Below are positions 3 through 26,445 of a DNA stretch of 64,000 nt, piece after piece; the stretch's first letter is position 1; every line of letters starts with the position of its first letter. Made by a program: the position numbers and the translations under genes. Origin of the DNA: Schmidtea polychroa (taxonomy: Eukaryota); contig CM097885.1 of assembly GCA_044892525.1 (NCBI GenBank), positions 12,650,001 to 12,714,000 on the forward strand, in the 5' to 3' direction. The notes beneath the pieces were generated by a model. The model was not told the origin of the DNA. It did no database searches and saw only the letters and a list, made by a program, of their open reading frames with translations.

Positions 3-3000
3 ATGATAGATGACGTAGTCATGATGTACGACAAAATAATATTACGGGCTGAAGGCGACACCTCGTTAAGTGAAATGGGAATGTGGGATAATCATCAAAT
101 CATCAGAATATTGCCCATGGACGAATTCCGAACAAGAGATATAACATACCAGAAAGAAATACGAGACAGGATGAAAACGCTATACCAAAAATCAGTAGAG
201 ATAATTGAAATTCATCAACAGTGGCTAAAAGAAAAAGAGCTTCAAGGAAAAATAAAGAAACTGAGTACTAGATCCTGCAGACGAACCCCATGGGAAAGGA
301 TGTGGAATGCGGAAAACAAAGAATGGGAAATCAGGAAAGGGATTTTCGTAGAAACAGACATTGGTGAGACAGAAAGTGAATCAGAAGAAGAGGAAGATGA
401 ACCTCCAAAATACGAAGAGGACGAAATAGAATCGATATCGGATGACGAAAGCGAAACGGATGTTACGTCAGAAAGTGAAACGGAAACCAGACATATTCAT
501 GCGATGAGAAAGAAAGAACGCGAATATGCTGATATGGACAGCGAAGAAGCGATGGAAGCTCGAGAACGAGAAGAGAAGGAAAGATATAAACAATTAGGTG
601 ATATCTTAGCAACGGGAGCAAAAAATCAAAAACGACAAGTAATAGCATTGGCTAACATCATCCTAAAGACATCAGAGAATATCCACAATCTAAGAGAAAT
701 GGCGAAAGCGATTGAGGAATACCGACAATATAACGAATGGTACCCAGAACAGCTAGAACAAATTATTAGGAAATGGAGAAACCAAGAATGGGCACAAGAT
801 ACCCAGGAAAGGTATCGTATCCGAGTCAAGTATCCCGACAAAAGCATTGAGGATACAGAAGTACATCCAACAACAAAGATCAGAGAGTTAAAAAAGAAAT
901 TAGCATACGAAACTCCATTTCACCTACAACTATTCGGAAAATCGTTGGATGATAATGCAGATGTCGGAATAACACCCATGAGATTGGGGGAGATCAATGT
1001 ATTGACAATGGCAGAAACATTGGGAAAACCGATTAAAAGGAAGAGCAAATCCAGTAAACCTACGAAAGGTAGCTTGAGTACACCAAGCCCTAACAAAGTG
1101 GCGAGTAAATCAAACGAAACCGAGGAGATCGAGGAGATCATATTGGAAGACAGCGATGAAGGAGCTGGGGAAAGATCACCAATTCTGGTAAGATGGCCGA
1201 CAGGGGCCGAAATATGGACAACAAGCCAACCATCAACTAGCTATCAACAACCAAATAAGCTGAACATAGAGGAAATTGTCGATAATACGACAGAAACCGA
1301 AACTGACGAACAATTTCAACGACAAAAAGGACCAACGAAAGCAATACCAGAAGGTCAAACGGACAAAATAATAGACGAATGGAATGAGTGGCTGAGAAAC
1401 AACGCTAGCTCATTGCCAAGAACAGATAACGAGAGAAACCCGAATTATGAAACGACAAGAGAAGCCGGAACAATGATGGAGAAACGGGCAAAAGGAAGAC
1501 CCAAGAAGCAAGGAGAAAAACCAGAATTTAAAACCAGAGAACAGTTGAAACAGGAACAAGGACAAGTCAGATTAGAGAAATTGGATAAAATAGTATGGGA
1601 CCTAAAAGAGGCCCAGCCAACAATCGAAAGAGGCGAAAAATGGATACGAGAGCTAGTAAAAGATATGCTAATAATAACGAACCCACAATTGCGACGGTTA
1701 TGGCAACGAAAAGTAGCAAGCGTAGATGCCAGACAGCTATGGAATACAATATCCGGAATAATTCCGAAATTAATCAAAGAGAAGACAAAAACCACTAAAA
1801 CCGATTGGGAAGAGACAAGAAGAGTAATTGAACAATTAACTTTAAACGCAAACGACGACGAACATCATTTAGTAGTATTAACGTATCTAATGTACAATTT
1901 GATGGGATTAGCAGCAAGGAAAATACCTAACAAACAATTCGCAAATCATGTAGAAATGACCGTTACAATCATTGAAAATACAATCGAACCACATATTATC
2001 CGTGCCGGTGGGTGGAAAAGACTCATACAAGCGCCACGAAAAAACGAGCAAGAGAGATCAATGCAAATTCGGTTGAAGAAATTGCTAAACGAGCTGGAAT
2101 GGGAATTGCCATTGAAAGACCCAGCCAGCAGAAAAGCGTCGATTAATTCACTAATGATGACCATGATGATATGGGTGCTCTGCACCAGTGGAGCCGCGGG
2201 ATTTACAATTTACGACTGTGACAATTCGATAATGGGAGAAAAATATTCCTTGAGGGATATAGAGGAATGTAGACAAGCATCTCCGAATAAATTGGATGTC
2301 GTGAAAAAGAAAGTCTCTTATCATGTATACCAAGAATCAGATTTTATTAGAACACAAGCAAGAGAATGCGTAGTATCAAAGAAGGTGTTGGCATATTACT
2401 GTGGACAATATTCGTATTCAACTCTTATATTACCCGGATTAGATAAAGAAATAGTACCTATACAACGAGAAGACTGTAAAGAGCTTTTTAGAACTGGAGC
2501 GATGAGAATCAGGGATGGAGTAACAATACACGGACAAAGCGGGATGATCAAGACTGAAAGCATCTATGTAGCCGGACGAGTAAAATCGACTGATGGATCA
2601 TGTAACGGAGGCACATACACGATCAGAGGAGAAGTGATCTCGGGAGTAGTAGTAATTGAGTCCTACACAGTGGAGTTGAAGGAATACGAAGCGCAATTCG
2701 ACGCAAACAACTATCAAATGAAAACCAACCCAGCATGTAGAGCCACGGAAAACGTGTGTAGAACGGGAATTTCGACTATAATCTATGAAGCTAACACCCA
2801 AAAATGCCGACTCCAATTGTTAAAAAGTGCTTTGTTCAACGAAGTAAAAGGAGAAATTTACGAAAACGAGGATGACGATGAAGAGAATGGAAACGTAAGG
2901 ATGCGAAATGGGAAACCAGTTCCACCATCCCCCAAAGAAAAGAGACTCACAACACAAAAAACACCAACGGCATTAATTACAGATGATCCAGATATCGGTA

Positions 3001-6000
3001 TGAGATTCATCAGAGAAAAAGAGACCACCAAATGTGACAGCATAGTATATCGGACGAACTACGCAGGTATTTACATGTCAAGACAAGTAATAGACCGAGC
3101 AGTGGGAAAGGTAGCAACAGAGGACGTAAAATTGTACCTGTACGCCAATAACAAAATGGACTTTTTATTCCATCGAGGACAAACGACAATGCAAAAAGTA
3201 TATTACGATCTTATACAAAATGACTGTTCATTGAATAAAGAGATACTAAAAACAAAATTAGCCATCGCAATAACACACCCAGATAACACAATGCCATCAC
3301 TCCCGTTACCGGATGGACATTTTGGTAGAATGGTGGGAGAGGTAATGTATACATATGCATGTACCAAGACGTTTGCGCGACTGCCAAGAAAGCCCACAAT
3401 TCCACCAGGGAAATGCGCAAACGAGTTGGAAATTAGTTACAAGGGGCGAAACAGATTCGTTCAACCCGTCACTAGAATTATGAACCCAATTGGATTTTAT
3501 CCGAACACCTTTAACTGTTCAAATGCATACGGACCGTTATATGAAAAACCCGATGGGAAATGGATAATGTTACCGGTAAAAACCGAAGTACAAGAGCCTA
3601 AAAAGTTTGGATTAATAGAACTCGCAACAGAGCAAGATTTCAAACCAATTGATGTGTCAAAAGCAGGTATGTACTCACCAGAGGATTTAGAAACAGCACG
3701 ACTAAACGTACTATTCCCAGCAAGGCGAGAATCCATTTTATCGAATATGGTTACCATAACCGGAGGAACAAATTTTCAATCAGGTCCAAATTATGAATTA
3801 TTATTGTCACCCGATCATTTTCAACAAGCCACGTCAAACATGATGAAAGCAATGTGGGGAAGATTTCTAGTGTTTGGTCAGATGATGGCAGGAATATTGG
3901 GAATCATCTTGATTATCCAGATTGTCAGAGTAATATTGACTCAAATGTTAGCGTGTTTTGATATCTATAAGAGGGAAAAGAAAGTAAATTGGAAATTGAT
4001 AGTAGGTTTTTTACCATTTTTGGCGAAAACAATGGTGTTGCACGGTCATTCTAAAGATATACACAGAATAAAACGATTAATCAAAATACTGACAAAAATA
4101 AAAGGGACTGACGAGGAAGTCGGTAGACGATTTCGGAAAACAATGTATGATGAAGCAACAAGGACGCAACTGAAAAAGAACAAACCAAAATTTTTAGACA
4201 GATTTAGAAATCGATCAAACAGCAGCGATAGTGATGATGATGATAACGGGAATGACAAATATCCATATCCAAGTAGAAACCCGAACGAAAGGCAAATAGA
4301 AACAGCACCATTTTGGGAGAAAGAAAAAACAAATACCTGGATAGCTAACGGGAGCTATATACCACCAGATATCGTTGGACAACAAACAGCTTTGACCATG
4401 ACACAAAATATGTATCCACAGTTACCAAGTCAACCAGGAATGAACTATATGCCAACCCGAAGAACGAAAAGCGTAGACCAAGCTGATGACGTTCGAACAA
4501 TAGCAGTAATGAGTTCACCAGGAGGCGCGGCAGTAACAGTCATGATCCAAATCAACGGGAAAGAGACAAGCGCAATGATAGATACCGGAGCAAATGTATC
4601 AGCAATAGCAATAAACCAAATACCCAGTAAATGTTGGAAAGACATCGAACAAACAACTATCCATATTATTGCATGCAGTAAAGAAACCGTAGACGTAGTA
4701 GGAAGATGGTGGACTACGTTACGATATCAAGATAATGAAATTGAAACGTATCTAGCGGTGATACCCAAACTGAGTGAACCATGTATAATCGGAACGGATT
4801 TAATGCCGGAATTGTTCAAAGAAGTAGTAATAGATCTAACAACAATGTGCCTAAAAGATAAAATGGGTAGAATATGCAAAATGAACGCAATAATCAGATG
4901 TCCGGAGAAAATAATTGTACCAGCAAAATCCCAGATGATATGTCAAATAAAAGTGGATGCAGGAATGGAAGGAGAAGCCATTTTTGAGCCAAGTAAATCA
5001 TTCGAAAAACGACGAGAATTACCATTAGCAAGAGAAATAATAACAATAAATGACGAAGGGGAAATACCAATTAACATCACAAATTTCGAGGAAGAAGACA
5101 AGATCATATATGAAAATGAAAGATTGGGTAGATTGACACCCATGATAGACATCGAATTACCAAAAATCACCAATGAAACAACGAAAGCTGACGAATTATG
5201 GATAATCGATAGCACATTGCTAACGGAAAAAGAAAAGGAAAGACTTCAACAATTATTGATAGAATATAAAGATATATTCGCTATTTCGGACTTAGATTTG
5301 GGAGCATGCGATGTTACATTACACGCAATACCATTAATAGACGAAACTCCAATCGCACTACGTCCATACAAACTAGCAGAGAAGCAAAAAGAGATAGCCG
5401 AAGCAGAAGTACAAAAAATGCTAGATGCACAAGTGATCGAACCAAGTTGTTCGCCATGGCAATTTCCAGTAGTCATGGTGAAGAAAAAAGACGGTACTCA
5501 GAGATTCTGTATCGATTATCGGAAACTAAACGCAGTAACAAAAAGAGACACATACCCGTTACCAGACATCAATGAGATGTTACTTATGCTGCAGGGGGCC
5601 GCATATTTTACGTCTTTAGATCTAAAAAGCGGATATTGGCAGATCAAAGTTAAAGAGGAAGACAAGGAGAAAACGGCCTTCACGTTGGGTCGAGACCTGT
5701 ATCAATTCAGGAAAATGCCATTTGGACTGACCAATGCCCCAGCATCATTTCAGAGATGTATGAATTTCGTCACGCACGGGATCAAGCAGTGCATGGTATA
5801 TATTGATGATTTATTAATATATTCAGCAACATTCGAACAACATTTGGAAGATATCAGAAACGTGTTCGTTCGATTACGACAATGGAAATTGAAACTCAAA
5901 CCATCAAAGTGTGATTGGGCAAAAGAAAAAGTTACGTTCTTAGGACACATAGTGTCAGCAAAAGGCAAAGAACCAGATCCAAGAAACATAGAAAAAATAA

Positions 6001-8390
6001 AAACATGTCCAGCACCAAAAACTGTCACCCAAGTTCAAGAATTTCTCGGATTATGCGGATATTATCGAAAATTCATCAAAAACTACGCAGGTATTGCGAA
6101 ACCAATACAGGAATTAGTGAAAAAGGATATTTCATTTATTTGGGGTGCAGAACAACAAAAAGCATTTGAGACATTGCGAGATAAATTAATTGAAGCCCCA
6201 ATACTGGTACATCCTGATTTCAAGAAACCGTTCTTATTAGCAACAGATGCAAGTGGATATGCAGCCGGAGCAATATTAGGACAACTGGATGAAGAAGGAA
6301 AAGAAAGAGTGATTGGATACTACAGCAGAACGTTTAAAAAGCACGAGAAAAACTATTCCGTAACCGAGAGAGAAGCGTTAGCAATTATACAAGCGATTAA
6401 ACATTTTCGATATTTGTTATGGGGACACGAAATATGTATCACCACAGATCACCAACCATTAGTATGGCTCGGTCAGCATAAGGAGGCGTCAAGCAGATTG
6501 ATGCGATGGGCAATGCAGTTACAAGAATATTCACCGTTCATAAAATTCAAAGCGGGAAGAGCGAATGCCAATGCAGATTGTATGTCAAGATTTATCTTTC
6601 CAGATTTAGTAGATCACGAAATGCAACGAATATGTCTGATGGTGGCGGAAGATTTAGATTTTTGCCAATTACGGAAAGACCAACAAGAGGATACAGAGTT
6701 GAAGCAAATCATTGAATATGTGAAAACAGGGAAAGCAGAGGTATATGAGAAAGATCAAAAATTGAAGGAGCATATGGATAAACATCGACATCGATATATA
6801 ATAGAGAAAGATTGGTTATTGATAATGGATGGCGAGAAAAGACTGATGTGCATTCCAGAAAATAGACGTAAAGATTTGCTAACGCAATATCATGACGGAA
6901 GACTCGGAGGACATATGTCATCCAAAAGGACGTTAGCCCGAATGAAACAAAAGTATTTTTGGCCTACCTTGACCGAGGATGTAACGGAATGGGTGAAAAA
7001 TTGCATAACTTGCGCCACCAGAAAAAACACGGGAACAAAATGGAAGGCACCATTAAAGCCAATGCCAGTACCAGCAGAACCAATGACAATGATATCTATG
7101 GATGTAGTCGGTCCATTACCAGAATCAGATAGAGGGAATATATATATATTGGTGATTACGGATTATTTGACGAAATTCCCCGAAGCATTCGCTATGGCAG
7201 ATCAGAAAGCAAGAACAATCGCGAAAATACTAGTAGAGGAGATATGCTGTCGATATGGAACACCAAAACAGATATTAACTGATCAAGGAACAAATTTCAT
7301 GAGTGAAATAATGAGCGAAGTCACCAACTACTTCAAGATCGCAAAATTAAGAACATCACCGTACCATCCACAAACTAATGGTATGACAGAAAGATTCAAT
7401 GGAACATTGATTCAAATGTTATCAAATTATGTCGATCGTCACCAACGGGATTGGGATGAGTATATAAAATTGTGTTTAATGGCTTACAGAATGTCAATTC
7501 ACGCGTCCACAAAGATGAGTCCGTTCAAGTTGATGTACGGCAGAGAATGCAATATGCCAATGGATTTAGAATATCAGCCACCAATATCACAGTATATGGA
7601 AATAGATGATTATGTAACCAAGTTCAAGGAAAGAATGCAAGAAATCTGGGAAACTGCGGGATTAAATATAAAGTTTTATCAGGAAAGTTACAAAGATCTG
7701 CATGATAGAAAGAAAAACGTTAAACAACATACATTTCAAACCGGTGATTGGGTGATGATCGAAACACCAGAATTAATTCCAGGAACCACCAAAAAATTAC
7801 AACGAAACGGCAAAGGTCCGTATGAGATTCTATTCGTCGGAGAAACCAATGTGAGAGTACGATTGGTAAACAACCCCTTCACGAGGCCAATATATGTAAA
7901 CGTGGCACGATGTAAGCCAATACCGAAAACAGCCACCAGCCAGCCGGAAGGGCGAACATTAACAACAAGATCACAAACGTATAGAATAAATATGTTACAG
8001 CAGATAAACGAACCAACAGGTAACCGATTGGGGTTACAACCATCAGAAGCCGAGAAAATCATAAAGGAAGTGAAAGCTAAAATGCCCGGATGGGCAAAAG
8101 ACAGATTAGATTTTGAGATATTGGGAGGTCTGCTAACCATGATCGAAAACTATGCAAACCGAGAAAGAACACACCCATTACTCAGGGTAGTAAAAAGTCA
8201 ATGGCCTATATTATTTACGATCACAGACCATTATGGAGATACACCGCTGCACAAACTTTTAAAGGTCGGGAATAATGAACAAATACTGGAAACGATCGAA
8301 GCATTTCGCGACTGTAACATTTCGACGGATCAAGAAAACAACCAAGGTTACACTCCACTAATGATAGCAGCCAATCGGGATAAAGCTTAA
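3..8390 (+). CDS. pol: Retroelement polyprotein (UBL, Bcl-2-like, glycoprotein, aspartic protease, RT, RNase H, integrase, start of ankyrin repeats); frame open at window start
   Basis: AMIDTGANVS (DTG at 4581), RFCIDYRKLN, LDLKSGYWQ, MPFGL, YIDD (5799-5810), ATDASG, H-x6-H...CxxC, DVVGP/TDQG/ERFN integrase motifs, GPY motif. Confidence 0.97.
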   Translation: MIDDVVMMYDKIILRAEGDTSLSEMGMWDNHQIIRILPMDEFRTRDITYQKEIRDRMKTLYQKSVEIIEIHQQWLKEKELQGKIKKLSTRSCRRTPWERMWNAENKEWEIRKGIFVETDIGETESESEEEEDEPPKYEEDEIESISDDESETDVTSESETETRHIHAMRKKEREYADMDSEEAMEAREREEKERYKQLGDILATGAKNQKRQVIALANIILKTSENIHNLREMAKAIEEYRQYNEWYPEQLEQIIRKWRNQEWAQDTQERYRIRVKYPDKSIEDTEVHPTTKIRELKKKLAYETPFHLQLFGKSLDDNADVGITPMRLGEINVLTMAETLGKPIKRKSKSSKPTKGSLSTPSPNKVASKSNETEEIEEIILEDSDEGAGERSPILVRWPTGAEIWTTSQPSTSYQQPNKLNIEEIVDNTTETETDEQFQRQKGPTKAIPEGQTDKIIDEWNEWLRNNASSLPRTDNERNPNYETTREAGTMMEKRAKGRPKKQGEKPEFKTREQLKQEQGQVRLEKLDKIVWDLKEAQPTIERGEKWIRELVKDMLIITNPQLRRLWQRKVASVDARQLWNTISGIIPKLIKEKTKTTKTDWEETRRVIEQLTLNANDDEHHLVVLTYLMYNLMGLAARKIPNKQFANHVEMTVTIIENTIEPHIIRAGGWKRLIQAPRKNEQERSMQIRLKKLLNELEWELPLKDPASRKASINSLMMTMMIWVLCTSGAAGFTIYDCDNSIMGEKYSLRDIEECRQASPNKLDVVKKKVSYHVYQESDFIRTQARECVVSKKVLAYYCGQYSYSTLILPGLDKEIVPIQREDCKELFRTGAMRIRDGVTIHGQSGMIKTESIYVAGRVKSTDGSCNGGTYTIRGEVISGVVVIESYTVELKEYEAQFDANNYQMKTNPACRATENVCRTGISTIIYEANTQKCRLQLLKSALFNEVKGEIYENEDDDEENGNVRMRNGKPVPPSPKEKRLTTQKTPTALITDDPDIGMRFIREKETTKCDSIVYRTNYAGIYMSRQVIDRAVGKVATEDVKLYLYANNKMDFLFHRGQTTMQKVYYDLIQNDCSLNKEILKTKLAIAITHPDNTMPSLPLPDGHFGRMVGEVMYTYACTKTFARLPRKPTIPPGKCANELEISYKGRNRFVQPVTRIMNPIGFYPNTFNCSNAYGPLYEKPDGKWIMLPVKTEVQEPKKFGLIELATEQDFKPIDVSKAGMYSPEDLETARLNVLFPARRESILSNMVTITGGTNFQSGPNYELLLSPDHFQQATSNMMKAMWGRFLVFGQMMAGILGIILIIQIVRVILTQMLACFDIYKREKKVNWKLIVGFLPFLAKTMVLHGHSKDIHRIKRLIKILTKIKGTDEEVGRRFRKTMYDEATRTQLKKNKPKFLDRFRNRSNSSDSDDDDNGNDKYPYPSRNPNERQIETAPFWEKEKTNTWIANGSYIPPDIVGQQTALTMTQNMYPQLPSQPGMNYMPTRRTKSVDQADDVRTIAVMSSPGGAAVTVMIQINGKETSAMIDTGANVSAIAINQIPSKCWKDIEQTTIHIIACSKETVDVVGRWWTTLRYQDNEIETYLAVIPKLSEPCIIGTDLMPELFKEVVIDLTTMCLKDKMGRICKMNAIIRCPEKIIVPAKSQMICQIKVDAGMEGEAIFEPSKSFEKRRELPLAREIITINDEGEIPINITNFEEEDKIIYENERLGRLTPMIDIELPKITNETTKADELWIIDSTLLTEKEKERLQQLLIEYKDIFAISDLDLGACDVTLHAIPLIDETPIALRPYKLAEKQKEIAEAEVQKMLDAQVIEPSCSPWQFPVVMVKKKDGTQRFCIDYRKLNAVTKRDTYPLPDINEMLLMLQGAAYFTSLDLKSGYWQIKVKEEDKEKTAFTLGRDLYQFRKMPFGLTNAPASFQRCMNFVTHGIKQCMVYIDDLLIYSATFEQHLEDIRNVFVRLRQWKLKLKPSKCDWAKEKVTFLGHIVSAKGKEPDPRNIEKIKTCPAPKTVTQVQEFLGLCGYYRKFIKNYAGIAKPIQELVKKDISFIWGAEQQKAFETLRDKLIEAPILVHPDFKKPFLLATDASGYAAGAILGQLDEEGKERVIGYYSRTFKKHEKNYSVTEREALAIIQAIKHFRYLLWGHEICITTDHQPLVWLGQHKEASSRLMRWAMQLQEYSPFIKFKAGRANANADCMSRFIFPDLVDHEMQRICLMVAEDLDFCQLRKDQQEDTELKQIIEYVKTGKAEVYEKDQKLKEHMDKHRHRYIIEKDWLLIMDGEKRLMCIPENRRKDLLTQYHDGRLGGHMSSKRTLARMKQKYFWPTLTEDVTEWVKNCITCATRKNTGTKWKAPLKPMPVPAEPMTMISMDVVGPLPESDRGNIYILVITDYLTKFPEAFAMADQKARTIAKILVEEICCRYGTPKQILTDQGTNFMSEIMSEVTNYFKIAKLRTSPYHPQTNGMTERFNGTLIQMLSNYVDRHQRDWDEYIKLCLMAYRMSIHASTKMSPFKLMYGRECNMPMDLEYQPPISQYMEIDDYVTKFKERMQEIWETAGLNIKFYQESYKDLHDRKKNVKQHTFQTGDWVMIETPELIPGTTKKLQRNGKGPYEILFVGETNVRVRLVNNPFTRPIYVNVARCKPIPKTATSQPEGRTLTTRSQTYRINMLQQINEPTGNRLGLQPSEAEKIIKEVKAKMPGWAKDRLDFEILGGLLTMIENYANRERTHPLLRVVKSQWPILFTITDHYGDTPLHKLLKVGNNEQILETIEAFRDCNISTDQENNQGYTPLMIAANRDKA
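810..1010 (+). other. Ubiquitin-like domain within polyprotein
   Basis: YRIRVKYPDKSIEDTEVHPTTKIRELKKKL...QLFGKSLDD follows the ubiquitin pattern (I.VK...; V.P..TI..LK.KI; L.F.GK.L.D). Confidence 0.65.
1600..2040 (+). other. Bcl-2-like helical domain within polyprotein
   Basis: BH2-like EPHIIRAGGWKRL, preceded at Bcl-2-like spacing by a hydrophobic helix HLVVLTYLMYNL; canonical NWGR of BH1 absent. Confidence 0.55.
2148..3960 (+). other. Env-like glycoprotein (class III fusion / chuvirus-G-like): internal signal, Cys-rich ectodomain, TM anchor
   Basis: Signal LMMTMMIWVLCTSGAAG then FTIYDC...YSLRDIEEC; ~550-aa Cys-rich ectodomain; TM MMAGILGIILIIQIVRVIL. Confidence 0.75.
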
Positions 8391-11219
8391 GATATTATTA
8401 TCGCATTACTTGAAACTGGGTCAAAGATAACCACACAAGATCACAACCAGAAAAATGCACTACATCATGCAATCGAAGGGAAAAGTACGAAAGCCTTCAT
8501 AATCTTAGTAGATCTATTATCATACGAGGATAATAGGGAGATAGGAAACATGTATGACGGGCTATTAACTGCAATCAAAGAGAAATTAATAACAATTGCT
8601 GGATTACTAATTGCATGGAGGAACCCGATCAAAAACGATTATATGGTAGATATAAACGAAACATTTACCAAAGGAGAAAACACCTTGATGAGAGAAGCGA
8701 TGAGAGGACATCACCTATTCGAAATTCCAAATCAACTACTACAACGTGGCATAAAGTTCTCAAATCACAAAGACGAACAACTAATTAGAAAACGAATTAC
8801 CAACTTCGAAAAAGCTATATCTCAATTTACCGATAAAGTACAAGTAAAATTTTGGGAAACCGTGAGTGTATTATATATGATGGAAAATATGAATAACATT
8901 CGAGAAACTTACCTAAGCATTATTCAAGTTCTAACGGCAGAGGAACGCATTAACAGTTCGAACAAGAAAAAGATAAAAATCAAGAAAATAACAGCAAGGG
9001 AGTCTGAGAAACAAGTCAATCAAATAATAAGCGATATAGCAACAACAAGTAAACCAAAGATAATAAACTCCGACCAAGAGATAGTAGTACGTAAGGCTAA
9101 AGAAGTATTCTTGGAAGAAATGCAAGATCTATCCGATGAAGTGATACTAGCAAAAATAACAAAAACAGTACACACCTACGCAAGAGACCAGACCACAAAT
9201 CTAGACATAGGAAAAATAAAAACATTTATACCACTCGCATTCACCTTACCAACAAAAGATTCAAGAACACCATTACAACAAGCCATTTTAGCAGCAAAAG
9301 AAAACAGAGCAATAACCATCATAAGAATTCTTAGAGACTTCGGAGAAGAATCTAATGCAAAAAATGAATAAGGAGAAACAGCAATGATGTATGCAGCAAT
9401 AACAAAGATACACCCGAAAACCTTACATATACTACATCAATCAGGTTCGAGACTTGACGAAATATCAAACGAAGGAAATTCTACCATGGATTGGGCAACA
9501 ATACAACCAAACTTGGAAATGATTAGATTCATTTGTAAAAATGCTACAAGAACTGAGGTAGAAAATATCTGTAAAAACACGTCACAGTTCCAATGGAACA
9601 CGATACGGATGAACTTAGAAGCCATGAAGTTATTGCTAACATGGAAAATACCGCAAAGCAATAAATATGCAATAAATATAAATGAGTTCTACGAAAACGG
9701 AGAAAATGCTATGGTTAAAAATACACTAACAAAAGGAGGAACTCCGAAAATCATAATGATCGTATTGAACAGAGAAGACCTCAAATTCACGCAAAATCTA
9801 AACGAACAAAAGCGAATCGGAAAACATCGCCGTATACAATTGAGAGAACTGGTAAAAGAATGGAATAGAAAGAGACATGTAGCAACAGGCAGAAAAGAGT
9901 TTGAATTCGAAGCAAAATTAGCAAGAAACAGAGTGCTAACGGCATACCGCAGATTGTTGAATGATATAAATGTCGAGGACGACATTTTAAACGATAGCGG
10001 GGGAGATGAAGACGATAAAGACGACGATAATAATGAAAAAGGTCGAAACGGGAATAAAGAGAAAGAGAAATCAGAGGAGAATAATCAAGAAAATAACGAC
10101 GCGAGTAGGAAAAAAGAGGAAAATAACCCGGGAAACCGAATGAAGCAAGAAGAAAAGACGAATAGTGGAAAACAGAGGGTATGCCTACTTTTTACCAACA
10201 AAGAAATGGAGACAAATATGATGATAATGATACTCGTATTAACAATGGTGGAAATGATAACAGCCCAGGGAGGAATGAGAACGATAAAAGAAGCCAAAGA
10301 AACGGAAAATAAGGACAACAAAGAGGAAGAACTAAAACAAGAAAAGAAAAAACAAGTACAAGAGCAGCAATGGGATCTAAAAGAAGAATGGGATTTAAAA
10401 GAAAGGTGTATATTAGGAAGATGTATGTCTAGAGCTTATCAGAGACTAGTGTTAAAAAATGAAGATGCAGAACCAATAACGGAAGTGGGAATACAAGAAG
10501 CGTACCAACATCGAAACGGGAAGAAGATAACAAAAGTCAAATGGAAAGAGGTACACCTGAGTAAAGGAGGTGAAATAGTGATAACACAGCTTCAACCAAG
10601 AAAAGAGCACAAAGTGTGTATTTCAAGGCTAGGCCCAGGAGAAAATTGTCTACAATATGTAACGCAACAACAACCACCAAAGGAATATACGGTCTGTATC
10701 CTGAGAAACGGTCCAGAAAGAGAATGTCGACGATACCCTGGGAAAAGAGGGAAGAAAAGAAAAATCAATGACGAAAAAGATGAGCAAGGAAAACGCAAGA
10801 AAACCAGTGAGAAACATCAGGACAATTATGTATCCGAGGAGGAGATGGAGAAAATACAAAAAATGGCAAAGGAAGGTATGAACGAGGAAATAGCAAGAAT
10901 ACGAGGAATGATAAAAGGAAATGGCAAAGACGGTAATCTAAAAAGCACAGAGGCAATATCAACAATAACGAACAAGGAAAAAGCGGAAATTATAAGCGTG
11001 AAACAGATGATGTGGATCAGCGGCATAATAATAACAGGGGCCTTTTTAATCATAACGAGGGGGACAATAAAAATAATCAAAGATAGACGGCATCGCGGAG
11101 AACTAGAAATGGCCAGAATAAGAAATTTTCAACATCGTGTAAAACGACCAAGTAATATCAAGCGGGAACAGTGGGTGGAGGCCTGGAATGCTCAGCGCCC
11201 TCCAAGCTCACGTATATAG
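8391..11219 (+). pseudogene. In-frame continuation of the polyprotein: ankyrin repeats, acidic linker, second signal peptide + ectodomain + TM; broken by TAA at 8388-8390 and 9369-9371
   Basis: ORFs starting 3, 8550 and 9384 share one frame; stops fall inside ankyrin repeats (GYTPLMIAANRDKA*DIIIALLETGS; SNAKNE*GETAMMYAA). Confidence 0.85.
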
Positions 11220-11747: not shown

Positions 11748-11836
11748 ATATAACCTAAAATAGCAATGTAAATAACTGTAAATAAAAATACGAAACTGTA
11801 CCAGTAACGAATATATGTATATATATAATTATAGAA

Positions 11837-13225
11837 ATGGATAAGCGACAACGAGAAGAATTCAAAGAAATTGTTGAACAAGTCAGAAAGTCCACCACAA
11901 TTCGAATACACAACCATGTAACGTGTGGAATATGCAAGAGCTTATTAAGAGAACCTCACCAAACCAGATGTGGATGCAGAATGTGCAGAGAATGTGTAGA
12001 GGAGATAATAAAGAAGGGACCACAATGGTGCCCAGTATGTAAAGAAACCATGATAGCAAGTTTGGGAGATACAAACGAAGATAAAGCAGCCGTGAAAGAT
12101 ATGTTAAATTCAAATTTAGGATGTAAAAACACCCCATGCAATTGGCGAGGAGTGATATGGGAAGTGAGGCAACATATGGAGCAATGTGAGTATAAAATCA
12201 GTCAATGCAAACGTTGCCAAGAAGAGATTAAAGTCAATGAAGAAGCAGAACATCAAAGTCGATGCGAAGAAAGACTGGAGAAATGTGAGTATTGCGGAGA
12301 AACCGACACCTGGAAAAAACTAATCAGTCAACATCACAACATACAAGAGGAGAAAGTGTGCGCAGGGTTCAGAGGAGAATGTCCCAATAAATGCGATAAA
12401 TCTGGAGTAATAAGACTCGCTCAACATCTCAGAGAATGTGAAAGGAAAAAGATAACGTATGTGCTAGGAAAATGGGGATGTCAGAAACAATTACACCGAG
12501 GAGAATTACTCCAACATCTAGCAGAAAACGTATCAACACACGCGGAAATATGGTCAACGGTATTACAAGAAAACGAAAGGAAAACCGAAAACTTAGAGAA
12601 AGAAATGGTCTCGCTAAAAGCGTTGGTAAAAGAGTTATTGGAAGAAAAGGAAGCATTTGAAGGGGCGAGAACAAGTACAAAGATACAGACAGATCTAGTG
12701 GAAACTAGCAACATTATGGTGAAAGAACTACATCAAAAAGTAAGCGAATTAAACCTCAACGAATTAATACCAACGGCTCCATACATATGGAAAATAACGG
12801 GAGTAAAAGAGAAGATGCAGAGAGCGAGAAATGGAAAGGATACAACATTACTAAGTCCAGCATTCTACTCATGGAAAAACGGGTATAAAATGAAAATGAA
12901 AGCATACCCCAATGGGGATGGAAGTGCATACGGAACGCATTTCTCAGTATTCTTCTTGATGTGCAAAGGGCTATACGACGAGTTAATAGAATGGCCATTC
13001 AAAGCAAAAATAGACCTCGCAATGATGAACTATCAAAGTATACATGAACAGAGTTTCCATACAGCGGGAAACCTCGTATGTTACCAAAGGCCCTTGGAAG
13101 AAGAAGGACCAGCAACTGGAGCACCGAATTTCATCCTACAGCGGAAAGTAGAAGACATGACGAGAAACGACACTATATACATAAAAATAGCGGTGAGGCG
13201 AGACGGGAAGAGTAGGACTGAGTAG
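11837..13225 (+). CDS. TRAF-like protein (RING, TRAF zinc fingers, coiled coil, MATH), intronless
   Basis: CGICKSLLREPHQTRCGCRMCREC...CPVC; CKNTPCNW; MATH YIWKI...LLSPAFY...GYKM...YPNGDGS.YGTHFSVFF...EWPF...DTIYIKI. Confidence 0.95.
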   Translation: MDKRQREEFKEIVEQVRKSTTIRIHNHVTCGICKSLLREPHQTRCGCRMCRECVEEIIKKGPQWCPVCKETMIASLGDTNEDKAAVKDMLNSNLGCKNTPCNWRGVIWEVRQHMEQCEYKISQCKRCQEEIKVNEEAEHQSRCEERLEKCEYCGETDTWKKLISQHHNIQEEKVCAGFRGECPNKCDKSGVIRLAQHLRECERKKITYVLGKWGCQKQLHRGELLQHLAENVSTHAEIWSTVLQENERKTENLEKEMVSLKALVKELLEEKEAFEGARTSTKIQTDLVETSNIMVKELHQKVSELNLNELIPTAPYIWKITGVKEKMQRARNGKDTTLLSPAFYSWKNGYKMKMKAYPNGDGSAYGTHFSVFFLMCKGLYDELIEWPFKAKIDLAMMNYQSIHEQSFHTAGNLVCYQRPLEEEGPATGAPNFILQRKVEDMTRNDTIYIKIAVRRDGKSRTE

Positions 13226-13443
13226 AGAGACGAATAATTTTGTATATACTAATTGTAAATATCGGCATATATACCCCGTAAAATATTATATAGTAGTGTA
13301 GAAAAATCCCCCAAATCTACTAAAGGTAAACTTAAGCGTAAAACTCCTAAAACAACTCCTATAACGAATTGTAAAAATAAATAAATAATAAACCAGATAT
13401 AAGCGTACAACGTTGAGTTAATGATATCGTTATTTAGACAAAG

Positions 13444-14480
13444 ATGACTCAAGATCAAACGGAAGCCCCAAATAACGAAATAAACATCAGTAGAATACAT
13501 AGAGAAAGATGGGCCAAAGTGATGGCACAATTATCAAATCAAACACGAAATTACCTCGAAGAAGCGAGAGAATGGGAAAACCACCAGTTCCAGTGGTTAG
13601 TACAGAATTTACGGACGGAGGCCGAGGCCTGCAAAAGAGCCGCCAAATGGTCTGCATTAGAAAATACCAGGCAAGAGGCACACGGGCATTACCTGAAGCA
13701 GCTGGTACAGGAGTCAAGAAAAAGACTAACGGATGAGAATAAGAAGCGGGAAATAGAAAAACAAAAGGGGAACGAAAGACCCGCCAACTATTAGCAGAAG
13801 CCAGAAAGTGGAAAAAACAACATATAGAAATCCAAAAAGAGATGAGAGAATTGCCGCAGAGATTGGAACACGAGAGTGATCAAGGGAAATGGGAAGAAAA
13901 CCGGGATCAGAAAGAAGAGCTAAGAAGGCTCCGGAAAGTAGCAGCTAGAAGTCAAACCTGGCAGACCAAGGCCATGGAATTTGAAAAGCATCTGGCCATG
14001 AAACTGTCCATGAAGGAACAGGAGAATACCGCCATGGAAGAGATGATCCTGCAACAGTCAGGTAGAATCGTCGAACTCGTAAACAAGGTGGCAGACCTTG
14101 AAAGAGACAATAACGGCTATAAGGGGGCACTAGAACAAAGGAATATAGTGCTAGCCGGTAAGAACAAGAACTTGGAAAACGAGAGGAAGATGTATGACGA
14201 AAATATCAAGAACCTCGAAAAGGAGATCAAAAAATGGGAGAACGGCGAAAAAGCGGAGGAGTTAGAAAAACAGATAGAAGTAAGAGATGATGAAACCAGG
14301 TATCTGACATACCTGTTAGACGAGGAACTCAACGTGTCAAGAGCGCTAAGAGACGAAGTTCAGGAGCTTAGAGCGCAGATTCCCCGGTACTACATCCCAT
14401 TCGATCCCATCGCAATCCAACTACAAACGTCAATAGACAGCGATGAAGGGTATGTAGGCCAGGAAGAAACCTTTGTATAA
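13444..14480 (+). pseudogene. Accessory coiled-coil protein, probably one gene split by a frameshift near 13770-13790
   Basis: ORFs 13444..13794 and 13842..14480; the second frame is open upstream (LLAEARKWKKQH), echoing YLEEAREWENH in the first. Confidence 0.55.
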
Positions 14481-14531
14481 AGATAAGGAGAAAAGATAAA
14501 AAAAAAATATAAAAAGCGGGACCTGTATCCC

Positions 14532-14557
14532 AAAAAAAAAAAAAAAAAAAAAAAAAA
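14532..14557 (+). repeat. Poly(A) tract (A26) in accessory-gene spacer
   Basis: Direct reading. Confidence 0.9.
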
Positions 14558-14672
14558 TTATTAGTACGATAAAAATATTTACGGGACTGTAACCCTGATT
14601 ATATAAAATTACCTATAAATGTATAAGTATAAGCCGCACTGTAGCGCACTATTAATTGTAAATATTGTAGAA

Positions 14673-15380
14673 ATGAAAATAGAAGAAATATCCACCATGA
14701 CCGAGCTAGAAGAGGGAGAAATTGAAACAGACCCCATAAAAATGAAAACGCCGAAGGACGAGTTGATAGAGGAGAAACAGGAAAAAGAAAGGATGATAGA
14801 CAAATATATGGATGATCGAAGAATGATAAAGGTGCTAAAAAGGGAATGCAAAACATTGGAGGAAATAAAGAAAGAAGTAGAAGTAGAAAACGAATGGCTT
14901 CACGAACAAAGAAAGCGAGGGAGAAACTGGGAAAAGATCGCGGAAGAATTATGGCAGGAGAGAGCCAGTTTCAAGGCAAACGAAGTAATTGAAGATTATT
15001 GGAAAACGGAAGCAAGGAAACGACAAGAAACCATCAAGGAGTTAGAAAACCAGCTGGAAGTAAAAGTACAAGAAAGTACAGAAATGGAGAAATGGAATAG
15101 TAAATATCGAGAAATAGAAACAAAACGGCAGAAACAAAACTCAAAGACAAACGACCCAGAGGAACATGATTTCCTACAATGGGAACTGGAACGGAACCTG
15201 AAAGAAAAGAAGAAGGAGATAAAAACCTTGAAAAGAGAGATAAGACACTTGACAGACAAGGTCCACGAGAAAGAGAGACAACTAGAAATGTTGCCGGAAC
15301 TCCGACATAGAGTCATTAAAGCGGAGTCTAAATTAATGCGAATCCGGGAGAAAAACCCTAAAAAGAAACGACAAAATTAA
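14673..15380 (+). CDS. Accessory coiled-coil protein with basic C-terminus
   Basis: ORF 14619..15380, likely ATG 14673; long E/K heptads; ends KNPKKKRQN. Confidence 0.65.
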   Translation: MKIEEISTMTELEEGEIETDPIKMKTPKDELIEEKQEKERMIDKYMDDRRMIKVLKRECKTLEEIKKEVEVENEWLHEQRKRGRNWEKIAEELWQERASFKANEVIEDYWKTEARKRQETIKELENQLEVKVQESTEMEKWNSKYREIETKRQKQNSKTNDPEEHDFLQWELERNLKEKKKEIKTLKREIRHLTDKVHEKERQLEMLPELRHRVIKAESKLMRIREKNPKKKRQN

Positions 15381-15424
15381 AACCGACAAAAAGCGATGTA
15401 TATAAATGTGTATAAAATTACTAA

Positions 15425-16354: not shown

Positions 16355-17114
16355 TGTTGGGCCAAGCTCTGAAGGTGTTGGAAAAACGAACCCAGGAAGA
16401 GACAGAGTAAATAAAATAAAAACATATAAAAATTACGAGAAATATAGGAAGAAACAAATTAAACATCCATAAAGAGACAAGAATAACTAAATAAAATAAC
16501 AAAACCTGTAAAGGGGAAATAAGACAAAAGGGAAGGCACCCAATGAGCATAACAGTAAAAGAGAAATAAAATGGCACAAAATTTAAGAAAAACAAATGAA
16601 AATTAAAGGAAAACAAAATAAAAATAAAATCATCCATAAGGTTAATTAAAACAAAAAATGAAGTTACAATAAAATAGCAATAAAACCACAGAAAAATAGG
16701 AGAAAAATAATAAAAAATAGGAAAATAAATAAAACAATAATAGAAATAGGTAGGGTCATTAAAATATAATATACTACGATAAGAAAAACATAAAATAATA
16801 ATAAATAACAAAATTACAAGCAAGGTGTGTCCTGATTGGACGGAAAATAATATATAAAGAGCAACCAAACTCTGTAGAGTATCATTCTAACCCGAAACTC
16901 TACAGGTAAAATTTATTTAAAAATTATCATTCTAACCCGAAACTCTACAGGACGAAACTAGGAACCACTCACGAGCACAGACTTACGAACGATATTCATA
17001 CTTGGACATAACAGATAGTACTTAGAGGCAAATAATAGTCGAGATCGAATCCAGTTGAGAAGAACCAGTCTAACTAAGGAAAAATTTGACAAAACTTTGA
17101 TTTCAATCCCAACA
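16355..17114 (+). repeat. Probable 3' LTR (760 bp)
   Basis: 7-bp inverted termini TGTTGGG/CCCAACA; internal TATATAAA near 16850; ~27-bp internal duplication (16880, 16925); 5' LTR not in window. Confidence 0.6.
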
Positions 17115-19290
17115 CCTTCGGAGAATTTTGGTAAATTATGTTTTGAATTTTAGTATGATAATTTTAATGTTTACTATGAATTTAATATCAAAAGACGTTT
17201 TATGTTTCAATAAAATTTATATTTAAAAACAAAAGATGTTGCTTTCTCTCTATGATGCTGGCGACGACGCCTTTTGGAGTTCGGGTATGATGCGGCTAAA
17301 TTACGTGTGCATTTCAGAGAGAGCTTATGAATATGAATACCCAGAAATTGAATTGACAGAACCAGCCAAGGATCTACATGAACTTGGGTACTATGATGAT
17401 TACTTAATGAATGTAAAAATGTACGATGGCAAGAGTCATCATACCCGGAATCCAGATGGCGTGGTCGCTAGGTAAACGTTTATTTATTTGATTTTTCTTT
17501 TAATTTCATTATTCCCATATTTGTTTGACAGTAATATGAATTTATTAATTGTACATTTATTGGAGAAGGATTTGAGATAAGTCGGGTCGAGTTGTCCTTC
17601 ACGACGGTCCAAGGGCAGTGGGCAGAAATGCGTACTGTCCTTGGGTGGGTTGTGAGGGGTGAGGAAACCCTGTGAGAGAAAACGAATCGAGTCAATGATC
17701 TTTCCATCGAGTGCTATCTATAAAATTAGCCGTCGAAAGCTTTCTATTGAGGAAACTTCTGAGCGATACTGTTTCGATGCCGACAACGTGCTGACCGAAA
17801 ATTCTAGGAGATCGACGACATTTTTCGAGATTTAATCCGAGTTTGAGTTTGGCTATATTCAATTCAGAGCTAAGTTACTTCTTTTCGTCAGAATGTGAAT
17901 ATCGACTATCCTTGAGGGTAATGAAATTCTCGAACTTCACTGATAATTCTAACGTCCATTTTCGTTTCTTGATGAATGATAAAAATCTAGAATATTCTAT
18001 ATTCCTAAGAATTGATAAATTAAGAGAACGTTAGCGATTAAACCCATCGCGGTGATATGTCAGTTGACGAGTAGGAGACTTAATTATCAACCTTCGATTA
18101 GCTGCTGTCATCGATAAGAATTTGCCCTGACAGAAAAGTAAATAGCAAAGTTCTAATTAATCATAGGTACTTACTACAGTCCTAAAGGAAATTATCAACG
18201 ACCATTTCGAACAAATTATCGATAAATTTTCCATCTGATCGAGAAACGACTATTGCAGGGAAGCAAGTAGCGTAGATAAAATATCCCAGCAGTTCGATTG
18301 TGGAACGACATGCGCCAAATCGATGAGACGATTAGGTTTTTTGAGAATAGTCAACATTCACGAGAGAGACAGGAGTTAAATCCATTCTTACCCGGTAACA
18401 GATTTGGGCAATCTTGAAATCATAACAATCGTTACTTCTATAAGCCGGACTCATTATCTTCCATCCGTCTAGCCCATCTGCTAGTAATGTTATAACTGAG
18501 ATAAGCAGACCCAAACCCATACACAGATAAATCCACTAATACATGGGACGTGAGTGAGTCGACATCATCATTGCGTCATAGTAGAATGTGTTAGTAGGCA
18601 TGCATAAATAAGCGACGAGATCAAAGTACACTAACAGACACAATGTCTAGAATTTGTTAAGAGAGGACAGCGATAATTGAGTAAAACGAGATAATACACA
18701 TTAGCGCACATCAGGTAGAGTCTGAAACCAGTACACAACTACATACCGATACGCGTCGTTATGACAACATGAAATGCGAAAATTTAAATAATTAAATTAT
18801 AATTTATGAGGGAAATTAATACTAATAATAATTTTTAACAAATTCGTTTTAACCTAACACAGCGCAAAAATGCATCAACAGCATGGAACTACTTCTTTTA
18901 AATTAAAGCAGGCATAACTCAATAAGCCATAAAAACCAGGGAGTAGACCCACCTTCAATAGGTCATAATAAATAAAAGTAAAAAAATATATTAGTGGTAA
19001 GGAGTAACTTATTGCGATTAGATGATAACTGTCGACCCAGGAACCTAGGTACAATATCAATATGGGTAGAGAAATAACGTGTGATGGTTCTCATTTTCTC
19101 TTCATTACGAACGATGTGATGAGTTGATTTGAAGGTTTACGGTTTGGATGAGTTAAGTGATGTCAAAGGTATGGATGTGGGGGACAATCCTGATTGTATG
19201 CATATGTGGTAGGATAAAGCCCACGATAAAAAGAAAATAAATAGTAGAAAGGATTTTAATGATGTAAATAACGGACTTCTCATTCTTTAG

Positions 19291-20052
19291 ATGACTACTC
19301 CTACAACTGCTGAGAAAACTCTTCGCCCATGTTTCTCCTGCGCGGATAAAAATGCAGATATCGCGCAGCTCCATCTATACATCGGGGCTTTAAAGAAAAG
19401 AATCGACCTTTACGAAGGCACGTGGTTCTCCCCGCCACAAATGAAGGAGGAACGAAAGAAAATCCTCCGGTTAGAACATTGTAAAGATAGCTTGCTGGAG
19501 GAAAGCCGATGCCAACGGCTTACAATCAAAGCCCAATCAGAAGCCCTCCACAAGGTTTATACGGAGGCAGAACTCGCCAAGCGGGTACGGGAATTTCCCG
19601 TCATAGAGAAAATGAACGTTTTCCCTCTTCATCATCAAGTATCCGAACCGACTGCTACGAGCCGCCAAGGGCATGGATCGTGCCTACCGCCCATTCCAGC
19701 TCCAATCTTATCGGGTTCTCAACCCTTGGTAGGTAGACCTACCGAGCCCATCTTGGCTCCAATCTTGGGGGCAACCGTCGTCACCCCGCACACTGACAAT
19801 CCCCCGTCGTCTCGCAAACGGAAACGGCCGATCCGAGCCGAGAAAAATCAGAAACGCCGAGATGCGATGGCTGCTCTCGAGGCGTCACTATCTGTAGCTC
19901 AATCTACCATAAGAGAAATATCCTCCAGCCATTCCATCCCATCAAAGGAAATCTTTCGTGTAATACCGGCAGAAGGCATCAAGTACATTTCTAACCCACG
20001 ACTGCCGGTCGATATCGACGCAATGCTTGCGGATGGAGAACCCTTCGATTGA
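19291..20052 (+). CDS. Hypothetical protein (CxxC, coiled coil, Pro-rich, NLS-like RKRKRP)
   Basis: 253-aa ORF in GC-elevated DNA, preceded by acceptor-like CTTTAG. Confidence 0.5.
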   Translation: MTTPTTAEKTLRPCFSCADKNADIAQLHLYIGALKKRIDLYEGTWFSPPQMKEERKKILRLEHCKDSLLEESRCQRLTIKAQSEALHKVYTEAELAKRVREFPVIEKMNVFPLHHQVSEPTATSRQGHGSCLPPIPAPILSGSQPLVGRPTEPILAPILGATVVTPHTDNPPSSRKRKRPIRAEKNQKRRDAMAALEASLSVAQSTIREISSSHSIPSKEIFRVIPAEGIKYISNPRLPVDIDAMLADGEPFD

Positions 20053-20595
20053 TCAATTCAAAGGTGCCTTGTTCTATGCATGGTCCCGAAGTGAACTTGC
20101 GTGTTTATAAATGCTGTATGTTTGCATGTAAAACAGTTCTTGATTATTCTGCGTGTAATGATTTGTTATAAGTTAATAAATCTTTTATTGTTTCTGATGA
20201 TTGATTTTAACAGGTGAGGTATCGAAGTTGATACGAGTGAAAAGATGATGTCGAATTAGGTGATAATACAAGGTCGTCCCCTTGGACCAGGGTCGGACCG
20301 AATTGTGTATGTAGGACTGGGTAAGACCTTCTAAGGCACCATAGAACCCGTACCGAGAAAGGGTTAGGAGTAGTCTTAAGGCAGAGGCTCACCTGCTAAC
20401 CTTTTCCAACCCGTGTGGGCAGCACCAACGTGGAACACCACCACGGGCCCATGCGTGGGAATATGTACATGATCATTTGGTGTATGTATGGGGAGTATCT
20501 GAGCGGAGTAATGATGCAGGGTGTGTGAGATGATGATGTGTGCAATAATTTCTTTTTCCCCACATATGCCAACAATAATAATTCAGTATTTTTCC

Positions 20596-23807: not shown

Positions 23808-23898
23808 TTTAGTACAACTTCATCATTATACGACACAGATATTTTGAGTTGAAGAATCATTCACCTTCGCTGACGAATTATATATTGATAAACTTGAT

Positions 23899-25947: not shown

Positions 25948-26052
25948 ATGTATACAGAAATATAGAAAGTTGTCATGGAGTAAGTTTTTTTTTGATACTG
26001 TTTAATTTATTAAAGTAGTTCTGTTCAGGTCAATAGAATTGGAAAACAGATA

Positions 26053-26361: not shown

Positions 26362-26384
26362 TAAATGTATTTTGTATCCTTTGT

Positions 26385-26412
26385 TGTTATTATTATTTTA
26401 ATTATTATTGTA

Positions 26413-26445
<33 letters not shown>

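Follow-up and report, generated by a model that had tools for sequence, protein, structure and literature searches.

A 64,000-nucleotide stretch of the Schmidtea polychroa genome (hereafter the window) carries a segment resembling a viral envelope glycoprotein in the same frame as the protease and reverse transcriptase that follow it, raising the question of what kind of element places its Pol behind an Env, and on which side of a membrane that Pol would be made. According to the accessible parts of two papers, the planarian element Burro was already reported in 2019 to have an in-frame env separating gag from pol (PMC6431247), and gB-type GAG-ENV-POL elements were catalogued in 2026 in Platyhelminthes, Nematoda and Bryozoa (PMC13524379). 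The gene order is thus in print and not new. Positions 2142-4600 of the window lie within a gypsy LTR retrotransposon of the Burro type, 28.6 kb long. We hold with good confidence that this is a giant gypsy element encoding Gag, accessory domains, a class III env and Pol in one frame, with Pol likely a cytosolic tail of Env, a reading that builds on the observed frame, domain order, predicted fold, retention among copies and purifying selection. The features of the window copy are as follows.

3..8390, + strand, main polyprotein frame, beginning 606 nt upstream of the window; 2,998 codons
798..1016, + strand, weak ubiquitin-like domain (PF00240, E 0.012, under the Pfam cut-off)
1560..2099, + strand, weak Bcl-2-like domain (PF00452, E 0.025-0.028, under the cut-off), ending ~45 aa upstream of the signal
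2142..2201, + strand, internal signal sequence (aa 714-733; KD19 maximum 1.52), with a predicted signal-peptidase cut before FTIYDC
2202..3863, + strand, predicted ectodomain of a class III fusion protein of the gB / chuvirus G type, 554 aa long with 14 Cys and a single N-glycan sequon
3864..3953, + strand, transmembrane (TM) anchor (core 3882-3938; KD19 2.53), one continuous helix in the model, then KREKK
3984..4040, + strand, second, weak hydrophobic segment (KD19 1.41; approximate insertion-scale sum +6.9), basic residues on either side
4041..4538, + strand, hydrophilic stretch linking the Env tail to the protease
4539..4814, + strand, aspartic protease (PF00077, E 1.3e-7; DTG at 4581)
4863..5171, + strand, faint dUTPase-like domain (PF00692, E 0.19, under the cut-off), positioned as in published Burro (PMC6431247)
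5478..6530, + strand, reverse transcriptase and RNase H (PF00078, E 7.5e-37; PF17917, E 2.9e-39)
6852..7370, + strand, integrase, H2C2 and core (PF17921, PF00665), in the gypsy order RT-RH-IN
8220..11219, + strand, C-terminal ankyrin repeats of the polyprotein, broken by two stops in the window copy
11786..13225, + strand, accessory RING-TRAF/MATH ORF (PF22486, E 7e-25; PF00097)
16355..20574, + strand, 3' LTR (4,220 bp, TG...CA)

One open frame spans 3-8387 of the window. From the signal to the protease DTG there are zero stops and zero frameshifts, and a stop-free run of 818 codons would be expected by chance at about 1e-26 at the local composition. The first-pass annotation had placed an Env-like segment in frame upstream of the protease and reverse transcriptase, uninterrupted by stop or frameshift, and the continuous frame bears this out. 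Its wording that the segment lies directly before the protease holds for the frame but not for the distance, as 211 aa, including the second weak hydrophobic segment, separate the TM end from the DTG. Matches to the ubiquitin-like, BCL2-like and dUTPase-like domains, each below the Pfam cut-off, fall at the positions published for Burro (PMC6431247). A Bcl-2 match recurs at the same place in the library homolog P0006 (E 0.00096), and searches with PDB phmmer and the ESM Atlas gave the Bcl-2-like domain no support. The element's cargo includes an IAP-type RING (Pfam E 1e-8), and no BIR was matched in the ORFs scanned, a subset of its small ORFs. The features of Ty3/gypsy elements (Metaviridae) are all present, namely the PR-RT-RH-IN order, TG...CA LTRs, a tRNA primer site and a short target-site repeat.

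The two LTRs differ at 12 of 4,220 sites (99.7% alike), the 5' LTR lying upstream of the window (L003:2003-6222), and the element is flanked by a 4-bp repeat, ATAA. Behind the 5' LTR, an 18-nt primer site would pair with the 3' end of a host tRNA-Pro(TGG). In the host genome, a tandem-array match to this tRNA end is called as a tRNA and two dispersed matches are not. The 28.6-kb length of the window copy is that left after a 2.4-kb deletion, which removed most of gag in frame (2,370 nt, 790 codons) about 200 nt before the window. The deletion is private to this copy, and the missing piece is present in 20/20 sister copies selected by env. The first-pass annotation saw no Gag zinc knuckle in the window and suggested that gag could lie upstream; it is not simply upstream, and its absence from this copy is due solely to the private in-frame deletion. 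No microhomology was seen at the deletion junction, where 6 nt are unassigned. The window copy is a recent insertion that has been damaged since and is unable to supply its own Gag.

Genome searches returned 298 and 730 candidate places, of which 40 from each were scored. Three of 20 env-selected copies (L018, L019 and L020, two of them independent) have an unbroken frame of 4,731-4,733 codons, so that Gag, Env and Pol form a single frame encoding 4,624 aa when counted from its first Met, with Retrotrans_gag (PF03732, E 4e-10) and three CCHC knuckles. The internal signal is retained in all 20. Had the env segment been a peculiarity of this locus it should be missing from other copies, and it is not: it is whole in 38/39 copies picked by reverse transcriptase, with gag visible within the fetched stretch in 37/39, and no env-less lineage appears among them. 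In 25/39 the path from signal to protease is free of stops and frameshifts, and the 13 copies with lesions there have no lesion site in common. Pooled pairwise dN/dS over 19 copies, from pairs that are not independent of each other, is 0.029 for the env ectodomain, 0.047 for the TM and tail, 0.016 for RT-RH and 0.019 for IN.

Relatives in a protein library show the same fusion. Among 25 proteins scanned out of 150 matches, picked mostly by length, env is followed by protease in one chain in 12 (27-47% identity), with a gag mark upstream as well in 3; 97 of the 150 matches are 600-800 aa long. A word-index protein search returned only one relative.

The ectodomain was proposed at first pass to resemble chuvirus-like class III fusion proteins, and sequence and structure comparisons concur. 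It matches Pfam PF24664 at E 2e-72, and the PDB sequence matches of a 123-sequence profile are all herpes gB (35/35, best E 0.0024). A single-sequence AlphaFold model was discarded (pLDDT 29.6); the AF2 model used has a pLDDT of 89.9. In Foldseek searches of solved structures with this model, herpes gB was best (HSV gB, E 5e-14), and among viral models the closest were those of chuvirus G, with an E-value of 1e-38 and TMq values reaching 0.71. The top 8 VIA rows were gB, Chandipura G and Bourbon GP, with Z 10.4 over 441 residues at an rmsd of 11.1. The comparison with viral fusion proteins suggested at the outset has thus matched gB, Chandipura G, Bourbon GP and chuvirus G. The description of the ectodomain as Cys-rich stands less well, because its 14 cysteines amount to 2.5% of residues, a share like that of Pol (2.4%), but the 123-sequence alignment shows 12 of them conserved at 90% or more. 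As modelled, the ectodomain has a class III fusion-protein fold, and it may form a trimer and drive membrane fusion. It does not belong with the class I (F-type) Env of retroviruses and insect errantiviruses, as env lies in frame 5' of pol and the predicted fold is class III.

The membrane layout can be read from the segments on either side of the ectodomain. The internal signal, ectodomain of about 550 aa and TM anchor were all recovered as claimed. The hydrophobic, signal-like stretch ends in GAAG immediately before FTIYDC at nt 2202, and in 11/11 library homologs whose env start is covered a hydrophobic run and small residues are followed by xAYDC, xGYDC or xAFDC. Beyond the anchor, the second hydrophobic segment is probably an interfacial helix rather than a membrane span, judging from its low hydrophobicity and the basic residues around it; it is weak in homologs also, including stand-alone G-like proteins. 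No later segment of TM strength precedes the DTG in the window copy or in 12/12 library polyproteins with a protease motif (13/13). The best reading of this pattern of hydrophobicity and charge is that Pol is likely the cytoplasmic tail of a membrane-inserted polyprotein. A motif for protease sites was absent from the ectodomain (0/7), a result that is not significant (P 0.42) for a motif defined after inspection.

If the second weak segment did cross the membrane, Pol would end up on the luminal side. Two C-terminal spans in Env, or a dual topology, would leave Pol cytosolic in only part of the chains and so set an Env:Pol ratio, and conservation of the segment in polyproteins and stand-alone relatives alike would fit such an arrangement. 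It is nevertheless very improbable, because the segment is short and weak (KD19 0.9-1.7; approximate insertion-scale sum of +3 to +8), has basic residues on both sides in the window copy, and is followed by no third span that would return Pol. That env might be a passenger, whether an endogenous chuvirus-like fragment that inserted in frame into a single copy or an error of assembly, would agree with chuvirus G being the nearest viral structure and with how common such pieces are in invertebrate genomes. This can scarcely be credited given env in 38/39 copies under strong purifying selection and the 12 library fusions to protease, and the dN/dS and retention figures led us to reject it.

A different possibility is that the frame is continuous in DNA but the RNA is processed, such that a splice skipping env yields cytosolic Gag-Pol, with Env or Env-Pol made from a separate transcript or by initiation at the ATGs at 2154-2166. 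Retroelements usually need excess Gag, and single-frame elements such as copia obtain it by splicing; in-frame Mets also open the signal, and synonymous variation, 0.31 on average, drops to 0.08-0.11 in a few 40-codon env windows. Against it, the linker from tail to protease keeps its frame and is under purifying selection (dN/dS 0.047), neither of which a skipped stretch behind Env's tail would need, and two of the low-variation env windows showed folding at the level of shuffled sequence (z 0.35 and -0.29). Of six windows examined for RNA structure, covering low-variation windows and env borders, five were at shuffle level and one (740-880) gave z -2.4. Of four contig runs compared, three of them presumed to be RNA, one possibly RNA run (X1) covers env and pol in 30/30 bins, with no env-skipping joints among 15 of 29 listed, and a run of uncertain kind (X2) has one low-depth joint, 2599-4530, seen in that run only; both are silent on splicing. 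We regard such processing as unlikely. Somewhat further from probability is an Env that is a real membrane protein not used for cell entry, serving as an intracellular assembly scaffold or in cell fusion while transposition stays cell-autonomous. The literature examined shows no particle or infection, and a membrane-threading role would by itself select against stops in env. Stop avoidance alone, however, would not hold dN/dS at 0.029 over 554 aa or preserve 12 cysteines and a whole gB-type fold, and the RT-selected copies include no lineage that has dispensed with env.

Under the preferred reading, with Pol as a cytosolic tail of Env, Gag would be made in the cytosol together with the ubiquitin-like and Bcl-2-like domains, the stretch at 2142-2201 would start translocation, and host signal peptidase would cut before FTIYDC, leaving the Gag half tethered by a signal that could double as the tail anchor of the Bcl-2-like domain. 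The ectodomain would then fold and trimerise in the lumen, and the TM would stop transfer, so that everything after it (tail, protease, reverse transcriptase, RNase H, integrase and ankyrins) is synthesised in the cytosol. Signal peptidase would in this way split Gag from a single-pass Env with a Pol tail, and it would be Env, in place of Gag, that brings Pol to the membrane where budding occurs. The element's own protease would cut at recurring motifs to free the cytosolic parts, most likely when the two halves have come together on a membrane and bud, and Env might then be used for entering other cells, such as stem or germ cells.

A bolder, tentative extension is that Burro-type elements may be enveloped endogenous viruses that package Pol via Env, their Gag and Env-Pol halves both tethered to the ER. 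Because Gag would be held by the Bcl-2-anchoring signal and Pol by the Env TM, reverse transcriptase would enter the capsid only when budding with the envelope. In nearly all LTR elements Pol enters the particle attached to Gag, and a luminal Env between the two would break this usual link. If correct, a reverse-transcribing element would be assembling much as flaviviruses do, and packaging of Pol via Env would account for a constraint on env that nearly equals that on RT and for how rarely env is lost. Many young, unbroken copies in one genome, together with a clear prediction (an FTIYDC N-terminus and a membrane-bound Env-Pol precursor), make GAG-ENV-POL assembly and movement between cells directly testable.

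Among known systems, Burro / GYPSM1 of dugesiid planarians is alike in its ~30 kb length, multi-kb LTRs and multicopy state, in the content of ORF1 (retrotrans_gag with three CCHC, env, PR, RT, RH, IN and ankyrins, with the ubiquitin-like, BCL2-like and dUTPase-like domains of Burro matched here below the cut-off), and in its TRAF/MATH and IAP-type RING cargo, going by the description in PMC6431247. The same text gives ORF1 as 4,873 aa in Burro1, against 4,624 aa in the sister copies here, which falls within the roughly 4,600-5,100 aa, with 2-3 CCHC knuckles, taken as typical of Burro-type elements, and places MATH/TRAF inside ORF1, whereas in the present element it is a separate downstream ORF (PMC6431247). 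Unlike the Burro cargo, the scanned RING ORF gave no BIR match, and unlike Burro the window copy lacks most of gag. Burro env was matched to mononegavirus fusion proteins and tied to gypsy Env (F-like) in PMC6431247, in contrast to the class III fold predicted here.

The GAG-ENV-POL 'errantiviruses' share the gene order, a gB-type class III ectodomain preceded by a signal or TM and followed by a TM, multicopy state and LTRs, according to the accessible parts of PMC13524379. Six of them are from Schmidtea; the present env sequence is none of the six listed there, the nearest being Smed_errantivirus_5, which by hand count agrees with it at 50 of the first 100 env residues given. The terms 'single ORF', 'in-frame' and 'fused' are absent from the main text of PMC13524379, whose accessible parts hold no discussion that we found of how Pol is produced or packaged. 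A literature search found no printed topology or packaging model for such elements, and further papers or supplements may hold one.

Chuvirus and xinmovirus G (PF24664) and herpesvirus gB share the class III fold, conserved cysteines and the succession of signal, ectodomain, TM and weak second segment, but are stand-alone genes of about 650 aa, whereas the present Env is the middle of a polyprotein. Flavi- and hepaciviruses make membrane-threaded polyproteins with an internal signal after the capsid part, cut by host signal peptidase in the lumen and by their own protease in the cytosol; the proposed model would work alike, with no homology claimed. Belpaoviruses such as Atlas also have a single ORF, in the order gag-pol-env, and with env last Gag-Pol is one cytosolic chain; that order keeps Gag and Pol joined, whereas the env of the present element would cut Gag from Pol.

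The polyprotein frame at nt 3-8387 (+ strand) is open throughout, and its env portion is laid out as follows:

nt 2142-2201 (aa 714-733), + strand: hydrophobic signal-like stretch, ending in GAAG before FTIYDC (nt 2202)
554 aa from nt 2202, + strand: ectodomain segment; 14 Cys, a single N-glycan sequon
nt 3882-3938 (core), + strand: strong TM after the ectodomain, KD19 2.53
nt 3984-4040, + strand: weaker hydrophobic segment behind the TM
DTG at nt 4581, + strand: protease, preceded by a hydrophilic linker

In Pfam terms, one chain carries, from N- to C-terminus, PF24664 Monjiviricetes_fusion (E 2e-72), protease, RT, RNase H and integrase. The first-pass annotation had proposed that env runs into the protease without a stop or frameshift, and the open frame bears this out, the chance of 818 codons without a stop being ~1e-26. 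Its description of the ectodomain as Cys-rich fails as a proportion (2.5% Cys vs 2.4% in Pol, i.e. no enrichment) and is better kept as a statement on conservation, with 12 of the 14 ectodomain Cys at >=90% in 123 aligned relatives.

The predicted fold puts the ectodomain among class III fusion proteins. The model was built from the 123-row alignment (a single-sequence model was unusable), with pLDDT 89.9 and pTM 0.70. Foldseek ranked post-fusion herpes gB first against the PDB (E 5e-14, TM ~0.43, rmsd ~12) and chuvirus/xinmovirus G first against viral models (E 1e-38, TMq up to 0.71). An independent structure search again returned gB (Z 10.4, 441 residues, rmsd 11.1) and then other gBs, followed by Chandipura G (5.9) and Bourbon GP (5.5), which exceed a coiled-coil background of near 5, and all 35 profile matches to PDB sequences were gB. 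Together with the PF24664 match, these searches agree with the earlier call of a chuvirus-like class III protein, and that reading of the env segment was correct.

The frame in this copy begins 606 nt upstream of the window. Sister copies were taken as the 20 best of 39 listed non-self matches (298 candidates), and every one has ~2.37 kb extra at the deletion point, a piece that, read in sister copies, encodes Retrotrans_gag (E 4e-10) together with three CCHC knuckles. Gag is invisible in the window's copy because an in-frame loss of 790 codons, whose junction is found once in the genome, removed this piece. The suggestion that gag could lie upstream stands for sister copies, where Retrotrans_gag precedes env, and not for this one. 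Three copies have an unbroken frame of 4,731-4,733 codons (4,624 aa from the first Met); two are independent, as L019 and L020 form a near-identical tandem pair. The window's copy, with two stops after the integrase, is young and has since been damaged.

At G000:C2:107.31-107.39 Mb of the host genome (L019/L020 with the stretches L040, L045, L046 and L048), two head-to-tail elements have one LTR in common; the pair is 99.987% identical across 30.6 kb with both 4,731-codon frames unbroken, and is either a real tandem or an assembly duplicate. A comparable 26.4-kb spacing occurs at C1:72.66/72.68 Mb.

For an env-neutral sample, the 39 non-self matches listed for an RT probe were used (730 candidates, 40 scored). 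The whole signal-ectodomain-TM segment is kept in 38 of these 39, with one partly deleted, confirming that env is present in other copies, and gag is visible within the fetched stretch in 37. The path from signal to protease is free of stops and frameshifts in 25 of the 39, and the lesions of the 13 others sit at differing sites, so that neither a stop nor a frameshift is programmed. Across 19 copies, after removal of two twins, pooled pairwise dN/dS (pairs not independent) was 0.029 for the ectodomain, 0.047 for TM plus tail, 0.010 for protease, 0.016 for RT-RNase H and 0.019 for integrase, and ectodomain variants common to copies number 154 synonymous vs 11 non-synonymous. Env is real and, by selection, functional; that it is a passenger insert is refuted by its retention and by the ectodomain dN/dS. 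Synonymous variation among copies is low at ~560-980, 3200-3320 and 3500-3620 (0.08-0.11 vs 0.31), and among those windows RNA folding is better than shuffles solely at 740-880 (z -2.4).

In a 50%-cluster library, 968 proteins match at E <= 0.001. Among 25 of the best 150 matches, picked mostly by length, env is followed by protease in one chain in 12, a gag mark lies ahead of env in 4, and both occur in 3. Five homologs (P0003, P0004, P0005, P0008 and P0017) have at least two tandem aspartic-protease domains behind env. Another, the env-PR-RT-IN polyprotein P0007, is filed under a Flavobacteriaceae MAG, which most likely reflects a eukaryotic contig binned with bacteria.

Since Pol must be cytosolic, an odd number of spans is required behind the ectodomain. 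KREKK comes after the one strong span. A second membrane span is very improbable, because the segment that would form it is weak here and in homologs (KD19 0.9-1.7; insertion-scale sums +3 to +8) and none of 13 polyproteins has a third span after it; stand-alone G-like proteins have the segment as well. All 11 homologs whose env start was covered show the signal-like pattern, as do 20 of 20 copies. From the single strong span, the weak second segment, the lack of a third and the recurring signal, we propose a likely order of threading in which the Gag half would be made in the cytosol, followed by an internal signal and a signal-peptidase cut; the ectodomain would be luminal, the TM would act as a stop-transfer, and Pol, downstream of it, would be cytosolic. 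Gag and Pol would become separate chains, each membrane-tethered, and Pol would reach the capsid via Env.

This membrane-threaded, Env-borne entry of Pol into particles is put forward tentatively, at somewhat below an even chance. A splice that skips env is unlikely, and a role of Env as scaffold only is less likely still. An R-I-N-M-M-like motif, defined post hoc, occurs 7 times in an unbroken copy, against a shuffle mean of 0.6 and a maximum of 5, and several of these occurrences lie at domain borders; its absence from the ectodomain is not significant (P 0.42).

With neighbouring genome stretches included, the element is 28.6 kb long. Its two LTRs of 4,220 bp, 8.0-3.8 kb before the window and at 16355-20574, differ at 12 sites, have TG...CA ends and are flanked on both sides by ATAA. 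The primer site lies seven bases behind the 5' LTR, and its 18 nt complement the 3' end of a host tRNA-Pro(TGG). The leader holds an IAP-type RING ORF (E 1e-8); ankyrin repeats are present too, and RING-TRAF/MATH is encoded in an ORF of its own. At Burro's published positions lie weak matches, all below cut-off, of ubiquitin-like, Bcl-2-like and dUTPase-like type.

Several further observations were made around the element. The tRNA-end pattern has 1,658 matches across the genome, and at L054 (G000:C1:130.90-130.94 Mb) tRNA-Pro(TGG) genes form a long tandem array whose unit is 475 bp. In L003, the stretch before the window, a 74-bp unit is tandemly arrayed at 7783-8445, in the part of the leader that separates the RING ORF from the start of the polyprotein, and at 917-1760, just before the 5' LTR, the env of a second Burro-like family is left as a broken fragment (PF24664 E 5e-6; by eye near Smed_errantivirus_3). 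Both LTRs contain a 253-aa ORF (19291-20052) with no match in a Pfam search; 12 of the 20 sister stretches keep it open over 252-253 aa, although in many the DNA is only ~72% alike. Possibly-RNA contigs from two runs of two studies join 12078 to 15495, so that the TRAF ORF is largely missing along with the ORFs downstream of it. The ends are non-canonical and three letters lie between them; the joint is a deletion variant or a splice. By eye, Polinton/Maverick-like ORFs (protein-primed polymerase pieces, ATPase, integrase, capsid-like) lie at 44605-56903 (- strand) and 22401-34713.

The element is a member of a described kind, and its arrangement has already been described; for planarian Burro, PMC6431247 gives env as lying in frame between gag and pol. 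Burro1 expression and an anti-apoptotic role of cargo are reported in PMC13465017 and PMC8532177. In the literature searched, no publication was found that models the topology or the way Pol is packaged, and what would be new, if true, is that Pol enters particles by a membrane-threaded, Env-borne route. PMC13524379 reports elements of GAG-ENV-POL order with HSV/gB-type ENV from nematodes, bryozoans and flatworms, including six Schmidtea elements; none of the six as listed there is identical to this env, and the nearest is Smed_errantivirus_5, with 50 of the first 100 listed env residues alike by hand count.
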